From contig JAGRES010000011.1 of NCBI GenBank assembly GCA_020446425.1, positions 9,484-73,483 on the forward strand: 64,000 bases of DNA, written 5' to 3'. The DNA comes from Sphingobium sp. (GTDB lineage: Bacteria > Pseudomonadota > Alphaproteobacteria > Sphingomonadales > Sphingomonadaceae). This document shows, in pieces, positions 18,625 to 28,313 of the stretch (positions within the stretch are counted from its first letter, which is position 1; each line of letters starts with the position of its first letter). The notes beneath the pieces were generated by a model. It saw nothing but the letters and a program-made list of their open reading frames with translations. It made no database searches and was not told where the DNA came from. The translations under genes and the position numbers were made by a program.

Positions 18625-19262
18625 GTGTTAGCAACGGTATCGACGGTGGCCTATCTGGGGCTGGAGGCGCGCGCCGTCGAGGTGCAATGCCAGCTGGTGG
18701 CGGGGCTGCCCAATTTCATCGTCGTGGGTCTTGCCGACAAGGCGGTATCGGAAAGCAAGGAGCGGGTGCGCAATGCGCTTGCCGCTATTGGTCTTGCACT
18801 GCCGCCCAAGCGTATCACCGTCAACCTGTCGCCCGCCGACTTGCCGAAGGAAGGCTCGCATTACGACCTGCCGATCGCGCTCGCGGTGCTTGGCGCAATG
18901 GGCATGATCGACGCCGAAACACTGTCGCATTATGTGGTGGTGGGCGAACTGGGGCTGGATGGCCGTATTGCGCCCAGCCCCGGCGTGCTGCTCGCCGCAT
19001 TGCATGCCAGCGGGCAGGACAAGGGGTTGATCTGCCCTGCGGTGCAAGGAGCGGAAGCGGCCTGGGCGGGTAATGTGGAAGTGGCCGCCGCGCCCAATCT
19101 TACAGGCCTGCTCAACCACCTGAAAGGCAAAGGCGTGCTCCAGCCGCCGCAACCCGGTGAGGTCGAGGCGCCGCTGCAAGGCCCCGACCTGCGGCAGGTA
19201 AAAGGGCAGGAGGTCGCCAAGCGCGCATTGGAAATCGCGGCGGCGGGCGGGCACAATATGCT
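18625..19262 (+). pseudogene. comM: comM/yifB 5' fragment (N-terminal Lon-like domain), truncated by island insertion
   Basis: The translation reads ...VSTVAYLGLEARAVEVQCQL...SHYDLPIALAVLGA...QVKGQEVAKRALEIAAAGGHNML. The frame then leaves native sequence and stops after two foreign codons at 19272. Confidence 0.9.
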
Positions 19263-19283
19263 CACATTATAACCTATTAAATT
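19255..19283. repeat. attL: shared core AATATGCT plus island-side P' arm
   Basis: Core at 19255-19262 is identical to 27435-27442. The arm ATTATAACCTATTAAATT (19266-19283) is the inverted copy (16/18) of 27420-27437. Confidence 0.8.
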
Positions 19284-19294
19284 TGAGTAATGAA

Positions 19295-19390
19295 ATGAAG
19301 ATCGGACTTTGGTTAGAAGCAGTTTTGATCGGTATCGTAACTGTTATCGCTATCGTTCAGGCGGCTATCAGTGTTCTCAATGTTTTGTGA
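19295..19390 (+). CDS. possible 31-aa hydrophobic peptide
   Basis: Own translation MKIGLWLEAVLIGIVTVIAIVQAAISVLNVL. No clear SD, and it could be spurious. Confidence 0.2.
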   Translation: MKIGLWLEAVLIGIVTVIAIVQAAISVLNVL

Positions 19391-19470: not shown

Positions 19471-19800
19471 TCAAATGCGCTGAGCGACAAGATATAGCGC
19501 CACCAGCACAACGAAAGTTATGGACCCAATAGCTAACGCTCCCTCCACCCAAGCCCACACAATACCGAAAGGGGTTCGTCTCCAAGCTTCTTCCGGTTTC
19601 TTGGTCTTAGTCCGGGTTTCGGACAGGTACTGCCTCACATCATGGAACAAATAGTAAAAGACCGCTGCAATGAACAGGGCGGAAAATCCGATTGATATCG
19701 GCGATTCTTTCGGGACGAGCGTCATGATTGAGAGCGAAATCCCAATAACTATGCACCAAGCTATGTATATGGCGGCCTCGTGGTTTGAGGATTTTTTCAT
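19471..19800 (-). CDS. hypothetical membrane protein (109 aa, about 3 TM)
   Basis: Track ORF. The ATG overlaps the stop of the upstream 51-aa ORF (ATGA). Hydrophobic segments AAIYIAWCIVIGISLSIM, GFSALFIAAVFYYLF and ALAIGSITFVVLVALYLV. Confidence 0.6.
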   Translation of the reverse strand: MKKSSNHEAAIYIAWCIVIGISLSIMTLVPKESPISIGFSALFIAAVFYYLFHDVRQYLSETRTKTKKPEEAWRRTPFGIVWAWVEGALAIGSITFVVLVALYLVAQRI

Positions 19801-19952
19801 CTGCCTCCCTCGTCACAGACAGGTATAGCCATCACCAAATTGGAGGAGCCATAATGGCTTCCCGGCCTCCATAATATTAGAATGGAGTTGACGATCACGG
19901 CACCAATGCAACCGGCAACAAAATTGAACCCTGCAGCGTCATGCTTATTCAT
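19797..19952 (-). CDS. hypothetical small membrane protein (51 aa)
   Basis: Own translation MNKHDAAGFNFVAGCIGAVIVNSILILWRPGSHYGSSNLVMAIPVCDEGGR. Its start overlaps the upstream stop (ATGAATAA) and its stop overlaps the downstream start (ATGA), so it bridges the two flanking ORFs exactly. Confidence 0.45.
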   Translation of the reverse strand: MNKHDAAGFNFVAGCIGAVIVNSILILWRPGSHYGSSNLVMAIPVCDEGGR

Positions 19953-20271
19953 TTAAGGCGCTTTCTCGTGTTCCCTCATCACCATAGGTTGCTGACCGCA
20001 TAGCAATGAGTTCCGAAGTGTCAGCAAGGCGCTCCATATGTTCGGAGATTTTTAGGAGGCTGTCGTGGGCAGAGATCAGGATCGCCGTCCCAAATAGCGC
20101 TGAGACTATTACGCTGAGGAAGATGATGACGATGGTTACGGAATAATCGCCTATGAAGCTGGCGCCCGGTTCGGCGGTAAAAGACCAGAAGAGGAAGATG
20201 GTGCAGACAATTAATATCAGCCCGCACGCAATTATAATTCCGTATTTCACTAAATTAACGATGAAAACCAT
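19945..20271 (-). CDS. hypothetical membrane protein (108 aa, 2 TM plus soluble tail)
   Basis: Track ORF trimmed to the internal ATG 20271 (MVFIVNLVKYGIIIACGLILIVCTIFLF...). The upstream part of the track ORF overlaps the divergent promoter region. Confidence 0.55.
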   Translation of the reverse strand: MVFIVNLVKYGIIIACGLILIVCTIFLFWSFTAEPGASFIGDYSVTIVIIFLSVIVSALFGTAILISAHDSLLKISEHMERLADTSELIAMRSATYGDEGTRESALNE

Positions 20272-20315
20272 ATGACGACCCCCTGAACAGTCAAGCGAAC
20301 TGGCGAATTGAGAGT

Positions 20316-20332
20316 GTCCCCAAAATGGGGAC
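20316..20332. promoter_or_regulatory. 17-bp perfect palindrome, candidate XRE operator
   Basis: GTCCCCAAAATGGGGAC lies in the 111-bp gap between the divergent membrane-protein operon and the XRE gene. Confidence 0.4.
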
Positions 20333-20382
20333 GATTTATGTTGGGTATATGTGCATGTGCTGGAAATCAAGCGGAACCAGCG

Positions 20383-20634
20383 ATGCAAAGAGGTTGGGTC
20401 GTATCGACCGAATATCGTTCGATCATTGAGAAGGTTAAGGCCGTTCGCCTGTCGCTGGATGTCTCTCAAAGGGAGCTTGCTCGCCGACTTGGAAAGCCAC
20501 CATCCTTCGTCAACAAGATCGAATTGCTGGAACGTCGAATGGACATTCTGGAGTTTGTCCAGATTGCTGAAGCGTTAGGTATGAGTGCTGAGCAACTTAT
20601 AGCCGCTGTGGCGACTTCGCTAAAAAAAGAGTGA
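20383..20634 (+). CDS. XRE-family helix-turn-helix transcriptional regulator (83 aa)
   Basis: IIEKVKAVRLSLDVSQRELARRLGKPPSFVNKIELLERRMDILEFVQIAEALG is a Cro/CI-type HTH. Start taken at ATG 20383. Confidence 0.75.
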   Translation: MQRGWVVSTEYRSIIEKVKAVRLSLDVSQRELARRLGKPPSFVNKIELLERRMDILEFVQIAEALGMSAEQLIAAVATSLKKE

Positions 20635-20666: not shown

Positions 20667-21011
20667 CTAATCCGGAAGTGATATCGAAGCCCCGTTGAAT
20701 GATCGCTTGGGGGAAGACCTTGTTTTTGATCGATCCTGCCTAGCCTGCTTCGTTCCCTCAGGCAGAGGAAAATCACATGCGTGCAGGAACATCAGATATT
20801 CTACGCCTAGAGATACGGTGCCAGGAATTTCCCTTTTTCCTGCCTCCCAATCACCGATAGTTTGATGTCCCCAAGCCGCCATGCGTAATTTGCTAGCCAT
20901 TTCCTGCCTGCTAAGCCCAAGCGCTTCTCTGCATTCGATAAACTCAGCGGGCTTCATGGGAGTATAATCCGACCGGGTTGCACTCTGCGAATCCTCACTA
21001 TTCATTATCAC
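20667..21011 (-). CDS. helix-turn-helix domain protein (114 aa)
   Basis: MKPAEFIECREALGLSRQEMASKLRMAAWGHQTIGDWEAGKREIP is an XRE-like HTH. Convergent with the 83-aa XRE gene. Confidence 0.65.
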   Translation of the reverse strand: MIMNSEDSQSATRSDYTPMKPAEFIECREALGLSRQEMASKLRMAAWGHQTIGDWEAGKREIPGTVSLGVEYLMFLHACDFPLPEGTKQARQDRSKTRSSPKRSFNGASISLPD

Positions 21012-23156: not shown

Positions 23157-23744
23157 CTATACATCAACCACCTTCCTCATGGCCTCAGTGTCGATTTCGA
23201 TATAGCGCTGGGTCATAGCTAGTGATCTGTGCCGAGCCAGAGCCTGCACATCTCTGAGGCTTCCTCCAAACCGACCGATATTTTTTGCCGCTCGAGTGAT
23301 AAATGTCCGTCGACCGCTATGACTGGAACAGCCAGCCAACCCAAGGCCAGAATACCACTGCCGGAACATATTGATGATCACTTGGCTGGAAGTCTGTTTC
23401 GATCTGGACGTTCGGATGATCCGATTCTCGAACGAAGACGGGTTTGAGCTGATTTGGAGCGCCCTTAAAGCGTTTTGGAGTTCGTTAGCCATTGGGATAA
23501 TACCGCCGCTTGTCCCCTTTGTGGCGCTATCGGCGAGAGCGATGCAATCTCGCAAATTTCCTTCGGCGTCAGTGACCATATCCCATGTGATGGAAGCGAT
23601 CTCCTTCGCTCTGAGTCCTGCTCTTACAGAAAGCAGGAAAATGACGATGTTGCGTTCTGGCCAACGAGAGCATTCCAGATAGCGGATGACGGCCTTGATC
23701 TGAGCGGGTGAAAGAATTTTGGCTTGCTTGCCGAGCATCAACAC
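23157..23744 (-). CDS. minimal tyrosine recombinase (catalytic domain only, 195 aa)
   Basis: Catalytic residues in order: RAGLR, HSGRRTF (HxxR), LARHRS and QRYIE (nucleophile Tyr). No N-terminal SAM-like core-binding domain is visible. Confidence 0.8.
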   Translation of the reverse strand: MLMLGKQAKILSPAQIKAVIRYLECSRWPERNIVIFLLSVRAGLRAKEIASITWDMVTDAEGNLRDCIALADSATKGTSGGIIPMANELQNALRALQISSNPSSFENRIIRTSRSKQTSSQVIINMFRQWYSGLGLAGCSSHSGRRTFITRAAKNIGRFGGSLRDVQALARHRSLAMTQRYIEIDTEAMRKVVDV

Positions 23745-23974
23745 CTTCCATTATAATTACACAAACTATTGTAATATCATAATAAAATTCGCTCAAGGCA
23801 TTAAAGCGGGTTCTGTGAAAACCGAGTGAAACAGCGGGTTTGGCCGGTTTCATGAGAAAAATATAATTTCATAATGACGAGCCGCCAGCAAGCCGGGCAA
23901 GGCAAAGCTAGCTGCTGCAACAACCACCCCTTTTTCTGTCACCCACTCACCAGCAATGGAGGCGTGTGCCAGCG

Positions 23975-23998
23975 ATAAGCCGGAGCTCATCGGCTTAT
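23975..23998. repeat. perfect 8-bp-stem inverted repeat
   Basis: ATAAGCCG-gagctcat-CGGCTTAT, in the gap between the tyrosine recombinase and the Rep-like ORF. Confidence 0.6.
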
Positions 23999-24125
23999 GA
24001 GTCGACAAGCGAAAAATCCGTAATTATCCTTTATTTACAGATGCTTGGTACATCTCGAAAAATGTTGAAGTTATTTCGGGGAATCGCCACTGTTGCCTTA
24101 TTCCACCCACAGGCAAGGAGAACGG

Positions 24126-24665
24126 ATGGCAGCGAAGACAGCGGATTACACCAATTGGATCGATCCAAATCTTAATCCCAACATATATTGCGTCGGCACG
24201 ACCAAGCAGGAGTATATGAGCTGGCGGAACGGCTCCCCCATACGGATGAAGCTCACCGAGGACACTCTTCATGAGCGAGCCGGTCAATTTATCGCTCGCT
24301 TATCCAAAGCCATTTACGGCAAGACGGCCTATCGCCGGTTCAAGCTAACAATACCGAACGCCCTTACATTGGAGGGTAACGGAAACGGCAGATCATGCTT
24401 CTGGCTGAGTCATGAAAAAGACCCCAGGAGCCTGAAAGAGAGGGGGAAGGTGCGTTACCATTTCAACATCCTTCTCAGGAAGCCGGAGTGGATGCCTTTC
24501 GACCAGCTTGAAGAGATCATAAAAAATATCTGGCGGTCCTGTGATTGGACCATGCCGGACATAAATATAGAGGAGCGAACTGGCGATTGCGTCGGTTACT
24601 CTCTCAAGGAAGGACCTGAGACTTTGGTCACCAAAACGCTTAGTTTTGGTCGCTCAATGCAGTGA
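24126..24665 (+). CDS. hypothetical protein with HUH-Rep-like motif order (179 aa)
   Basis: AAGGAG SD 5 nt before ATG 24126. FKLT (aa 72-75), YHFNILL (111-117) and GYSLK (157-161) have the spacing of rolling-circle Rep motifs I/II/III, but the second His is Asn. Confidence 0.5.
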   Translation: MAAKTADYTNWIDPNLNPNIYCVGTTKQEYMSWRNGSPIRMKLTEDTLHERAGQFIARLSKAIYGKTAYRRFKLTIPNALTLEGNGNGRSCFWLSHEKDPRSLKERGKVRYHFNILLRKPEWMPFDQLEEIIKNIWRSCDWTMPDINIEERTGDCVGYSLKEGPETLVTKTLSFGRSMQ

Positions 24666-25689: not shown

Positions 25690-27390
25690 TTATGCTCTTT
25701 TGATAGATTCGCGTTGCATAAGAACATTCATCTTGGAATTCATTTCAAAATGTGTTCGCTCACCGGTGAATGCATCAAATTCTGTGAAACTATAGGTCTT
25801 GTAAAGCACCATTATCTCAATGAACCGATTGGCATCTCCCAAATCAGTAAGAGTTAATCCTTCGAACATCTGATCAGGAATATCATCGCCCGGAGTGGGA
25901 AAGCTCCGTCCAATTTCAATGCGAGACACTAGCCTTCCGAGTTCAGAGGAAAATTTTCGTCGGAGAGCAGATCGCTCACTATCGGTGATGATGGGAGAGT
26001 TAAGGTTCTCGACGAGCGCTTTGTAATCAAGTCCTGATGACAGACTAAGATGCGCTAATTCCTCATCGGCAGTACGTTTGTCTCGTTGTATTTTTTCTAA
26101 GTCCAATTCCAGCCGTTTAAGTTTTGAGGAAAGCGCTTCCGAATATCCGCTCGCAGCGATAGCATCTGCTACATTCTCTAACTGCTTCTGAAGCTTCGCT
26201 TCCTTTGCATCCAGATCGACTAGTCTGAAACGTAATTCGGCGGTTTTTGCCATCCATGCAGGGCTATTGATAATGGCATCAAAGTTGATTGTAGTGAGCA
26301 ATCGAAACAGATGCGCTTCGACTATGTCGTATCGGAAGGCAGGACTCGAACAATCTTGTGTCAAAACTGCTCTGGAGCATCGGAGGTACCTACCCCCTTT
26401 AGGTGGCGGGCCTTTGTCAATGAACCGCATACCAGACCTGCAAGATTTGCATCTCAATAAGCCTGTAAAAAGGTTTGTGAAATTTCTTCCCTTACGGCCT
26501 TTTCCATTCACTTTGCGTCTAGCGATAGCGTTCTGAGCATCGGCAAATACCACCTCATCAATGATTGCTGGATAATAGCCGCAAATTGGTGGTCCATCAG
26601 GAGATCGGGGTTTATGAGATAGCCCTTTAGCTAGACGGTGAGGCTGATACTCACCCAAAACTGCCCGATTGGACAGAATTTTTTTAATATAGGATTCTTG
26701 CCAATGCCCACTGCGGCTCCAAGCGGGTATTCGCTGTTCATTCAAGTGTTTTGCAATGGAAAATGACCCCCAACCGCTTCCGCTAAGATCGAACATGTCT
26801 CTGATAATCTCAGCGCGCTCTTCAATGATTTCAATGGTTTGACCATCTTCTGAAAAGCGAAGCCAGCTTGGAATACGTTGCTTGGTAATATGACCAGCTC
26901 TTGCTGCTGTTCGCTTGTTCTCCCAGACTGCTCCTAACCTCATCGACTTGGTACGAGATTCTTCATGCGCTCGCATCAAAACCATGGCGGCCATAATCAT
27001 CGCCATGGGGTTTTTAGAAACAGTTTCTGCCGAATAAATTTGCTCATCAACTAGCGTTACGAGCACGATGCCGTATCCGACGATCTTATTTAGAAGAGAG
27101 ATGGCTTCTATAAGATTGGTGCGGGTTATCCGGTCCAATGACTCCACGATCAAGTAGCTACCTTTAGCTATCCTGCCTGCTTCGGCGAGATCAAGAAAGT
27201 TCGCCAATTTACCCATTTCTGCGTTTTCGCCTGCAAAAGCTGAAACACCACAATCATGCATGATGTCCATCAATTCTAGGCCATGTTTTTTGGCATAGTC
27301 CTCGGAAGCCTTCAGCTGGCGCCGAATGGAATCCCCCTTCATCTGTTCAAGCGTGGACATGCGAATATACGAATAAGCGTGCGGCATCAT
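25690..27390 (-). CDS. large serine recombinase (integrase of the island)
   Basis: MPHAYSYIRMSTLEQMKGDSIRRQ (resolvase catalytic Ser), a recombinase domain, Zn-ribbon CKSCRS...RYLRCS and a C-terminal coiled coil. The track ORF starts at 27411; the likely start is ATG 27390 or 27387. Confidence 0.9.
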   Translation of the reverse strand: MMPHAYSYIRMSTLEQMKGDSIRRQLKASEDYAKKHGLELMDIMHDCGVSAFAGENAEMGKLANFLDLAEAGRIAKGSYLIVESLDRITRTNLIEAISLLNKIVGYGIVLVTLVDEQIYSAETVSKNPMAMIMAAMVLMRAHEESRTKSMRLGAVWENKRTAARAGHITKQRIPSWLRFSEDGQTIEIIEERAEIIRDMFDLSGSGWGSFSIAKHLNEQRIPAWSRSGHWQESYIKKILSNRAVLGEYQPHRLAKGLSHKPRSPDGPPICGYYPAIIDEVVFADAQNAIARRKVNGKGRKGRNFTNLFTGLLRCKSCRSGMRFIDKGPPPKGGRYLRCSRAVLTQDCSSPAFRYDIVEAHLFRLLTTINFDAIINSPAWMAKTAELRFRLVDLDAKEAKLQKQLENVADAIAASGYSEALSSKLKRLELDLEKIQRDKRTADEELAHLSLSSGLDYKALVENLNSPIITDSERSALRRKFSSELGRLVSRIEIGRSFPTPGDDIPDQMFEGLTLTDLGDANRFIEIMVLYKTYSFTEFDAFTGERTHFEMNSKMNVLMQRESIKRA

Positions 27391-27419
27391 GCCACTGTAA
27401 ACACCTTCCATATAAATTC

Positions 27420-27442
27420 AATTTATTAGGATATAATATGCT
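27420..27442. repeat. attR: island-side P arm plus shared core AATATGCT
   Basis: AATTTATTAGGATATAAT (27420-27437) is inverted relative to 19266-19283. The core is at 27435-27442. Confidence 0.8.
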
Positions 27443-28313
27443 GATGTCAGGGCCGCCGGGCGCGGGCAAATCGCTGATGGCGAGTTGCCTGCCGGGGATA
27501 TTGCCGGACCTGACGCCCGCTGAGGCGCTGGAAGTTTCGATGGTGGCAAGCGTGGCTGGCACATTGGAGGGCGGGCGCATGACACGCGCGCGGCCTTTCC
27601 GCAGCCCGCATCACAGCGCGTCGATGGCTGCGCTGGTTGGCGGCGGTTTGCGGGTGAAACCGGGTGAGGTCAGCCTCGCGCATCTGGGTGTGCTGTTTCT
27701 CGATGAACTGCCGGAGTTTCAGCGCGCCGTATTGGATTCACTGCGCCAGCCATTGGAGACGGGCGAAGTCGCCGTCGCACGCGCCAACAGTCATGTTACC
27801 TTTCCCGCGCAGGTGCAACTGATTGCGGCAATGAACCCGTGCCGGTGCGGTCATCTGGGCGACGCGTCGCTGGCCTGCTCGCGCGCGCCGCGCTGCGCCG
27901 CCGATTATCAGGCCAAGCTGTCCGGTCCGCTGCTCGATCGCATCGACCTGCATGTCGAGGTCGGTGCCGTGAGCGCCAGCGACCTCAGCCTGCCGCCTCC
28001 CGCCGAGGGATCGCAGCAGGTTGCCGCACGCGTGGCGCAGGCGCGCGATATTCAGACGCGCCGTTATGCCCCCTATGATCTGCGTACCAATGCAGAGGCG
28101 GACGGCCTGTTGCTGGAAACCCTGTGCAAGCCGGAGGAGGCAGGACAGACATTGCTGGCCGATGCTGCCGCCACATTGAAGCTGACGGCGCGCGGTTACA
28201 CACGCGTTTTGCGCGTCGCGCGTACTATTGCCGATCTGGCAGGGGCGCAGACCATAGGGCGGCTTCATATCGCGGAGGCATTGAGCTATCGTCGGCGCGC
28301 TCCGGCTGGCTGA
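27438..28313 (+). pseudogene. comM: comM/yifB 3' fragment (AAA+ Mg-chelatase-like ATPase and C-terminal domain)
   Basis: MLMSGPPGAGKS (Walker A), VLFLDELPEF (Walker B) and the ChlI-like region. In frame with 18625-19262 once the island is removed. Confidence 0.9.

Follow-up and report, generated by a model that had tools for sequence, protein, structure and literature searches.

What does an operon of three small membrane proteins do at the end of a mobile island, and is it still doing it? The question is raised by a 64,000-nucleotide stretch of Sphingobium sp. DNA (assembly GCA_020446425.1, contig JAGRES010000011.1, positions 9,484 to 73,483), hereafter called the window, in which an integrative island splits the comM/yifB gene in two. 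At one end of this island, three minus-strand genes, here named A, B, and C, are translationally coupled and lie divergent from the gene of a small regulator of the XRE type. The initial annotation, made from the sequence alone, had described three open reading frames (ORFs) of 108, 51, and 109 amino acids (aa), chained by stop/start overlaps and dominated by transmembrane (TM) helices, and had suggested a membrane-acting effector, for instance in superinfection exclusion or as a toxin, held under repressor control. The coordinates and counts of these ORFs proved correct, and hydropathy assigns two TM helices to A, one to B, and three to C. The function that we favor, with a probability of roughly 0.38, is that A-B-C may be an envelope-level exclusion or protection module.

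Relatives of A, B, and C

An exhaustive HMMER search made with A against 1.84 billion representatives yielded only six of them, namely, A itself and five relatives with identities of 28 to 56%. A word-index search of 5.8 billion clusters matched A and C only to themselves, alignment scans of JGI metagenome contigs and IMG/VR for A or C found nothing, and tblastn of A against phage and plasmid collections gave no match; the six aligned A sequences had diverged too far to be used in a pattern scan. Pfam, PADLOC, PHROGs, and NCBIfam contain no family for A, B, or C, in agreement with the annotation, which had recognized none. Profile libraries run on the long B and C homologues described below returned no match, and the long B of locus L053 was also without a PADLOC match. 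A candidate assignment of C to TauE/SafE (PF01925) was rejected: it scored 27.4 bits, below the cut-off of 32.6, for a model of 237 positions (C has 109 aa), was absent from the C protein of L053, and was judged compositional.

The closest counterpart of the window module is found in L053, where an XRE gene is divergent from A (104 aa), B (209 aa), and C (135 aa), with the same 8-nucleotide (nt) and 4-nt overlaps, and where the module occupies the same junction in comM (79% identity over the junction). In L022 (Sphingobium phenoxybenzoativorans SC_3), XRE is divergent from A (99 aa) and B (200 aa); L054 carries A (102 aa) and B (173 aa); and in L057, a different XRE-type gene is divergent from A (94 aa) and B (233 aa). 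L055 and L056 encode A (104 aa) followed by a frameshifted B, and A is interrupted by an in-frame stop (nonsense codon) in L013 and L014. The overlap of A with B recurs in L022, L054, L057, and L056. Thus, in the relatives, the gene that comes after A is in every case a coupled B-type gene, TM-anchored and 173 to 233 aa long (frameshifted in L055 and L056), and C was detected in no locus other than the window and L053. What the family conserves, as judged from these loci, is A with a coupled TM-anchored B bearing a variable, Cys-containing extramembrane domain, and C is an add-on. Three small membrane proteins therefore describe the window as it stands today; the ancestral unit appears to have been A plus a B of ~200 aa, to which C was added and in which the window B has decayed. 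The full triplet, in the same order and with the same overlaps, is kept in L053; the other relatives lack C.

Substitution patterns between the window and L053 indicate that A, B, and C are true protein-coding genes under purifying selection. The two C proteins are 54% identical, with a ratio of nonsynonymous to synonymous substitution rates (dN/dS) of 0.21; dN/dS is 0.32 for the B N terminus and 0.15 for XRE, and for A, the corresponding proportions are 0.34 (pN) and 0.82 (pS).

A-family loci were found only at island ends proximal to the attachment (att) site or beside a HigBA-like pair, in line with the view that the operon has no housekeeping role. L053 and L022 share the att-end position beside XRE, and a remnant occupies it in L013. 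By its distribution, A-B-C is an undescribed family, very rare and confined to mobile elements. It is of a kind already familiar, in which a mobile element carries small membrane proteins as accessory cargo and an XRE regulator controls them.

Two neighborhoods among the relatives are of note. In L055 (369-2018) and L056 (419-1261), a RelE/HigB-like toxin and a helix-turn-helix (HTH) antitoxin are encoded immediately upstream of the A homologue, next to the host argG gene, and the frameshift splitting B is present in these two independent assemblies. In L057 (2213-2476), a small protein with an LprI domain (lysozyme inhibitor, PF07007) follows the A-B pair, which possibly hints at an envelope-protective theme or is a coincidence.

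Architecture of A and truncation of B

A is a hairpin of two TM helices, the second of which extends as a coiled-coil-like tail of ~40 residues, 13 of them charged. In the family alignment, M1, F3, V5, L59, A63, S67, and H69 are invariant, and S67 and H69 fall within a conserved S-x-H-(D/E) motif directly after the second TM helix. Searched against PDB, the A profile matched only designed antiparallel coiled coils (residues 67 to 91, E=1.2e-6). The AlphaFold2 model, built from the six sequences, has a mean confidence score (pLDDT) of 73.5 and consists of helices 2 to 32 and 40 to 106.

The window B is much shorter than its counterparts. Intact B homologues combine an N-terminal TM anchor, a Pro/Ser-rich linker, and a Cys-containing domain of low conservation, and the N-terminal motif KH..G.(S/N)F..(A/G)CIG is common to the window B and the B proteins of L053, L022, L054, and L057. 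Only the first 98 nt of the window B align with the B gene of L053, C begins 58 nt further on, and ~480 nt (~160 codons) are absent relative to L053. Since A is always followed by a B of 173 to 233 aa in the relatives, the window B is the internal-deletion remnant of a ~200-aa protein that has lost its extramembrane domain. Without this domain, the ancestral function is probably weakened in this island. After the deletion, the reading frame still runs uninterrupted into the ATGA overlap, and the GGGAGG Shine-Dalgarno (SD) sequence of C, located in the last codons of B, is retained; this preservation suggests that selection for C expression or translation continues. We also considered B as a lipoprotein and discarded this assignment, as its VAGC motif sits within the TM helix and not after a signal h-region.

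The XRE regulator, its dyad, and the genes facing it

The regulator divergent from A is an HTH-only protein of 83 aa. The annotation had placed it across 111 bp from the operon, and its homologues, all of which begin with MQRGW, back this start. A total of 372 homologues were found, the best being 60 to 82% identical, and those with a source name all belong to Sphingomonadaceae. PADLOC gave only generic HTH matches, including a weak one to "Control_protein" (E=1.5e-5). Thirty-four genome loci were fetched, and the control region was compared over 26 distinct loci. In each of these, the dyad GTCCC(C/T)A-N3-(T/C)GGGGAC occurs once, 49 to 55 nt upstream of the XRE ATG, with 2.0 bits of information at 14 of 17 positions. 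The proposed control region is genuine. The 17-bp palindrome reported for the window is accurate as a 7-bp inverted repeat; as a 17-mer it is not perfect, because its center is AAA, with A at both positions 8 and 10. Taken alone, its presence in the window exceeds chance only marginally (0.12 expected at ≤2 mismatches; present in 12 of 100 shuffles).

Information falls to ~0 bits at the dyad edge on the cargo side, and across loci with differing cargo, the XRE-proximal part of the control region is conserved and the cargo-proximal part is not. The information profile also contains a conserved -10-like box, close to TATA(C/T)T, that presumably acts as a promoter element. Two loci (L032 and L053) have variant dyad sites, neither of them compensatory, and this fits a protein operator rather than an RNA hairpin. 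An RNA hairpin or terminator was accordingly rejected, given the invariant sequence without compensatory changes, as was a tyrosine-recombinase core site, for which the 3-bp spacer is too short.

The genes that face XRE are almost always those of envelope proteins, and they represent at least eight unrelated partner types. In 10 loci, the partner is a lipoprotein of 306 to 326 aa; others are TM-anchored, secreted, or polytopic proteins, and in L023, the cargo is a triplet, with a lipoprotein between two 3-TM proteins. Even among islands that share the backbone of the window island (a 195-aa and a 190-aa gene), the cargo adjoining the att site varies by island: A-B-C in the window and L053, A-B in L022, a TM-anchored protein in L012 and L019, and a TM-anchored protein with a secreted 253-aa protein in L015. 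Some of these islands use comM as their att site and others use tRNA-Lys. Beyond XRE, two sister islands have candidate defense genes: L015 (7779-8906) encodes a PDC-S15 (FRG-domain) protein (E=1.9e-38), and L022 (8394-10423) encodes a PD-T4-6/mad6-like Ser/Thr kinase (E=3.3e-34) with a PP2C phosphatase. XRE and the dyad are a portable cassette of Sphingomonadaceae mobile elements and are not specific to the A-B-C operon. Whatever the module does, the cassette offers a clean natural system for studying how mobile elements regulate surface-acting accessory genes, and it also suits the question of cargo exchange between element types.

The lipoprotein loci have a feature of their own. In L026 (795-8246), as well as in L024, L025, L027, L029, L033, L036, and L038 to L040, the XRE-facing lipoprotein gene and a solo Cas1-like gene (L026:5868-6971; Pfam Cas_Cas1, E=1.5e-29; TIGR00287, 76.1 bits, cut-off 71.7) converge, and a conserved 1028-aa orphan lies near it in 6 of the 10 loci. 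These loci may represent a casposon-like or Cas1-solo element of Sphingomonadaceae.

Possible function of the module

In the mechanism that we propose, an XRE dimer would bind the dyad, and this one operator would set both transcription units. The dyad would span approximately -42 to -26 relative to the -10-like box; it would therefore overlap the -35 region of the XRE promoter, a position that favors autorepression. Because only 44 nt, SD included, separate the dyad from the A ATG, the operon promoter would overlap the dyad or lie beyond it. XRE could act on the operon as a repressor or as an activator, a sign that we can only infer. Entry of the island into a repressor-free cell would be followed by a burst of A-B-C and, later, by low, buffered expression. 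A would oligomerize in the inner membrane through its coiled-coil tail and act with B and C at the envelope, and the module would keep out incoming DNA, phage, or agents that target the envelope, or give protection against them, as an exclusion or immunity function encoded by the mobile genetic element.

We favor exclusion or protection because lipoproteins and other envelope proteins lie opposite this XRE/operator cassette in mobile elements of several types, because sister islands carry defense-type cargo, because the att-side position and the immunity-type regulator match those of classical superinfection exclusion (Sie) and entry-exclusion genes, and because XRE is clearly not a dedicated antidote. 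If phage or foreign DNA is indeed excluded, a new family without homologues would join the small set of membrane-level exclusion systems, in a host group, Sphingomonadaceae, that matters for wastewater treatment and pollutant degradation. The payoff for this window is limited, since the central gene B is already truncated. A more far-reaching proposal is that A-B(-C) would be the first example of a new envelope exclusion or defense system in sphingomonad elements, with XRE and the dyad as a bidirectional promoter-operator cassette onto which element types (comM serine-recombinase islands, tRNA-Lys islands, and solo-Cas1 elements) dock interchangeable envelope cargo; we regard this as speculative and, in its entirety, unlikely.

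Several results weigh against exclusion or protection. Profiles for Sie, holin, abortive infection (Abi), toxin-antitoxin (TA), and defense families gave no match, Foldseek with the A model found nothing significant in PDB or BFVD (E>1; best BFVD E=1.2), and the structure model of B (pLDDT of 42) was unusable. No transcripts of the locus were detected in the metatranscriptomes of one study that also has the DNA, and a sigma-70 consensus scan revealed no credible operon promoter, its sole minus-strand match placing the -10 on the A start codon. An exclusion function should also be expressed in the established state, which simple repression by XRE opposes. Finally, 3 of the 7 independent A loci are damaged (the B deletion of the window, the A nonsense codon of L013/L014, and the B frameshift of L055/L056), so that the module looks dispensable. 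There was no family match, no informative fold, and no RNA, and none of the results shows an effector activity of the kind suggested at the outset.

The alternative that survives best, doubtful as it is, regards A-B-C as decaying cargo that worked in an ancestor, is now functionless, and is kept as a remnant by recent descent. The loss of ~160 codons from B, the nonsense codon or frameshift in sister loci, and the failure to detect RNA are all in its favor. Furthermore, the 22 metagenome contigs that bear C are all copies of one island, with a single substitution within island sequence and few other differences, all in the flanking comM, and such near identity gives no signal of recent selection. 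On the other hand, A and C are intact with good SD sequences, the B deletion spared the frame to the ATGA overlap and the SD of C, and the element is single-copy and stable in the communities from which the copies come, namely, wastewater and activated-sludge metagenomes of at least 10 studies from 2015 to 2025.

It is also unlikely that the module is a toxic membrane effector of the holin-like, Abi, or addiction type, in which a pore formed by A would depolarize the membrane and XRE would keep the module off until infection or island loss. A does have the hallmarks of a holin or viroporin (small size, two TM helices, charged C-terminal tail, and coiled coil), frequent inactivation fits a costly gene, and divergent HTH regulators of two XRE lineages flank A-B (that of the window, L053, and L022 and that of L057), with a RelE/HTH neighbor in L055. 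However, no holin, Abi, or TA profile matched, the island ORFs scanned include no endolysin or recognizable killing partner, and in L055, A-B occurs without a divergent XRE. The many unrelated envelope proteins, including harmless-looking lipoproteins and secreted proteins, that the same XRE and operator face elsewhere also argue against a specific pairing of the toxin/antitoxin kind.

A membrane sensor or anti-repressor, in which an envelope signal received by the outer domain of B would modulate XRE, HTH114, LuxR, and MarR, and hence excision or cargo expression, is quite improbable. The highly variable extramembrane domain of B is sensor-like, the island is rich in regulators, and the cytoplasmic coiled coil of A could bind a partner. 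Nevertheless, the HTH-only XRE has no domain with which to receive a signal, the cytoplasmic part of B comprises only ~7 residues, the window B lacks the putative sensor domain altogether, and the cargo genes with which the XRE cassette works are many and unrelated.

We give hardly any credence to a small-solute or metal-handling set, analogous to a regulator facing MerT/MerP/MerC-type proteins and with TM cysteines as ligands: the regulator is divergent from small membrane proteins across a dyad operator and Cys residues occur in TM helix 1 of B (CIG, in 4 of 5 homologues) and of C (WCIVIG), as well as in most A proteins, but the A cysteines are not invariant, paired CxxC or CC motifs are absent, profiles for Mer, Cop, Czc, and other transporters gave no match, no reductase or efflux partner is present, and the regulator is XRE rather than MerR or ArsR.

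Island context and feature coordinates

The GC content of the window, ~60% overall, falls to 38 to 52% between ~19.3 and 27.4 kb. Both comM junctions have an identical 8-nt core, which defines the insert as an island of 8180 bp between the two att cores; with its low GC content, its serine recombinase, and the split comM gene, the mobile island of the initial annotation (8.18 kb) was thereby confirmed. The island is unusually rich in regulators (XRE, HTH114, LuxR, and MarR), and the ORFs scanned in it are regulators, recombinases, and orphans, with no muramidase, amidase, or peptidase domain among them. The second HTH gene, described as convergent with XRE, was found as stated (Table 1), and its product has no homologue in the related loci.

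Table 1. Positions of the att sites, genes, and control elements of the island and its comM flanks in the window
Feature	Position	Strand	Details
comM/yifB N-terminal half	18625-19272	+	Pfam ChlI E=2.4e-38 and start of Mg_chelatase; ORF ends ...GGHNMLTL, then stop
attL core	19255-19262	.	AATATGCT (8 nt), read directly from sequence
31-aa ORF	19295-19390	+	MKIGLWLEAVLIGIVTVIAIVQAAISVLNVL
Gene C	19471-19800	-	109 aa, 3 TM, K/R-rich loop at residues 53-77; strong SD GGGAGG inside B 3' end
B/C overlap	19797-19800		4 nt, ATGA
Gene B' (window B)	19797-19952	-	51 aa, 1 TM
A/B overlap	19945-19952		8 nt, ATGAATAA
Gene A	19945-20271	-	108 aa, 2 TM; SD AGGGGG 8 nt upstream of ATG
Divergent control region	20272-20382	.	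111 bp, between A and XRE
Predicted operator dyad	20316-20332	.	GTCCCCA-AAA-TGGGGAC, GTCCCCAAAATGGGGAC; 7-3-7 inverted repeat, single copy in window
-10-like box (putative promoter element)	20346-20351	+	TATATG here, TATACT in most relatives; 13 nt downstream of dyad; from information profile of 26 loci
XRE/HTH_3 regulator	20383-20634	+	83 aa; Pfam HTH_3 (PF01381) E=1.1e-9, 38.6 bits vs cut-off 23, residues 18-71
Second HTH_3 protein	20667-21011	-	114 aa, convergent with XRE; Pfam HTH_3 E=1.7e-5
195-aa/190-aa gene pair	23157-24665		Tyrosine-recombinase-like gene (catalytic domain only) and orphan
Large serine recombinase	25690-27411	-	573 aa, far island end; Resolvase, Recombinase, and Zn_ribbon_recom domains on identical gene of L001
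attR core	27435-27442	.	AATATGCT, same 8 nt as attL core
comM/yifB C-terminal half	27438-28313	+	Begins at Walker A motif; ORF starts MLMSGPPGAGKS

The 195-aa and 190-aa genes form a conserved pair that is also present in L015, L019, L022, L032, and L013, with identities of 66 to 91% and 33 to 76%, respectively. As the pair occurs in comM islands, which use a serine recombinase, and in tRNA-Lys islands, it is a module independent of the integration system.

A nearly all-hydrophobic ORF of 31 aa begins 23 nt past the stop of the truncated comM, on the same strand as the comM half, and was called in two metagenome assemblies. It could be expressed by read-through from the comM promoter; it may also be spurious, because the equivalent junction of L053 has no counterpart.

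In two independent data sets, contigs L004 and L005 track the window from comM through C-B-A-XRE to position 20763 and then continue into unrelated sequence (...ACCACGAGCGCGGACGCTAAC). The stretch concerned is 20755-20763 of the window (L004:1-45; L005:1-28), and L004 differs from the window at 11 positions, all within comM. These contigs may belong to a second island variant having only the left arm in common. A search of four DNA runs for empty-site or excision joints gave only short-sided joints, from comM of other organisms.

Comparison with known systems

Type II TA systems with an XRE antitoxin are usually codirectional and overlapping and involve one toxin family, whereas the genes here are divergent and XRE has at least eight partner types. 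A closer parallel for the regulator is provided by the C proteins of restriction-modification systems and by XRE proteins of the Cro/CI type, which are likewise HTH_3-only proteins of ~80 aa carried on mobile elements, with a dyad just upstream of their own gene and a predicted logic of autoregulation and timing of neighboring genes after transfer. The predicted operator GTCCCCA-N3-TGGGGAC is, however, single and different, and the partners are envelope proteins rather than nucleases.

For A, the class II holins and pinholins offer a likeness in size (~100 aa), two TM helices, a charged hydrophilic C-terminal tail, and a helix that is likely to oligomerize; unlike them, A matches no holin family and is part of no lysis cassette, with no endolysin or spanin in the scanned island ORFs. 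The predicted arrangement of A as a TM hairpin with a long cytoplasmic coiled-coil-like helix also recalls MscL and KcsA. This is a structural analogy only, as A is shorter and shows neither sequence nor Foldseek similarity to them, and a channel role would be purely speculative.

The systems closest to the function that we favor are the membrane proteins of superinfection and entry exclusion, which include T4 Imm and Sp, HK97 gp15, P22 SieA, lactococcal Sie2009, the lipoproteins Llp, Cor, and Ltp, and TraS/TraT. A, B, and C differ from these in having no sequence or profile similarity to them (PHROGs, Pfam, and PADLOC), in being carried by a small nonphage island, and in forming an operon that is divergent from its regulator and not cotranscribed with it. 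They resemble them in being small inner-membrane or membrane-anchored proteins borne by a mobile element, encoded beside an immunity-type HTH regulator and near an att end, and in pairing a 2-TM protein (as Imm and gp15 are) with a second one that is TM-anchored and carries an outer domain (as Sp and Sie2009 do), in both cases free of any enzymatic domain.

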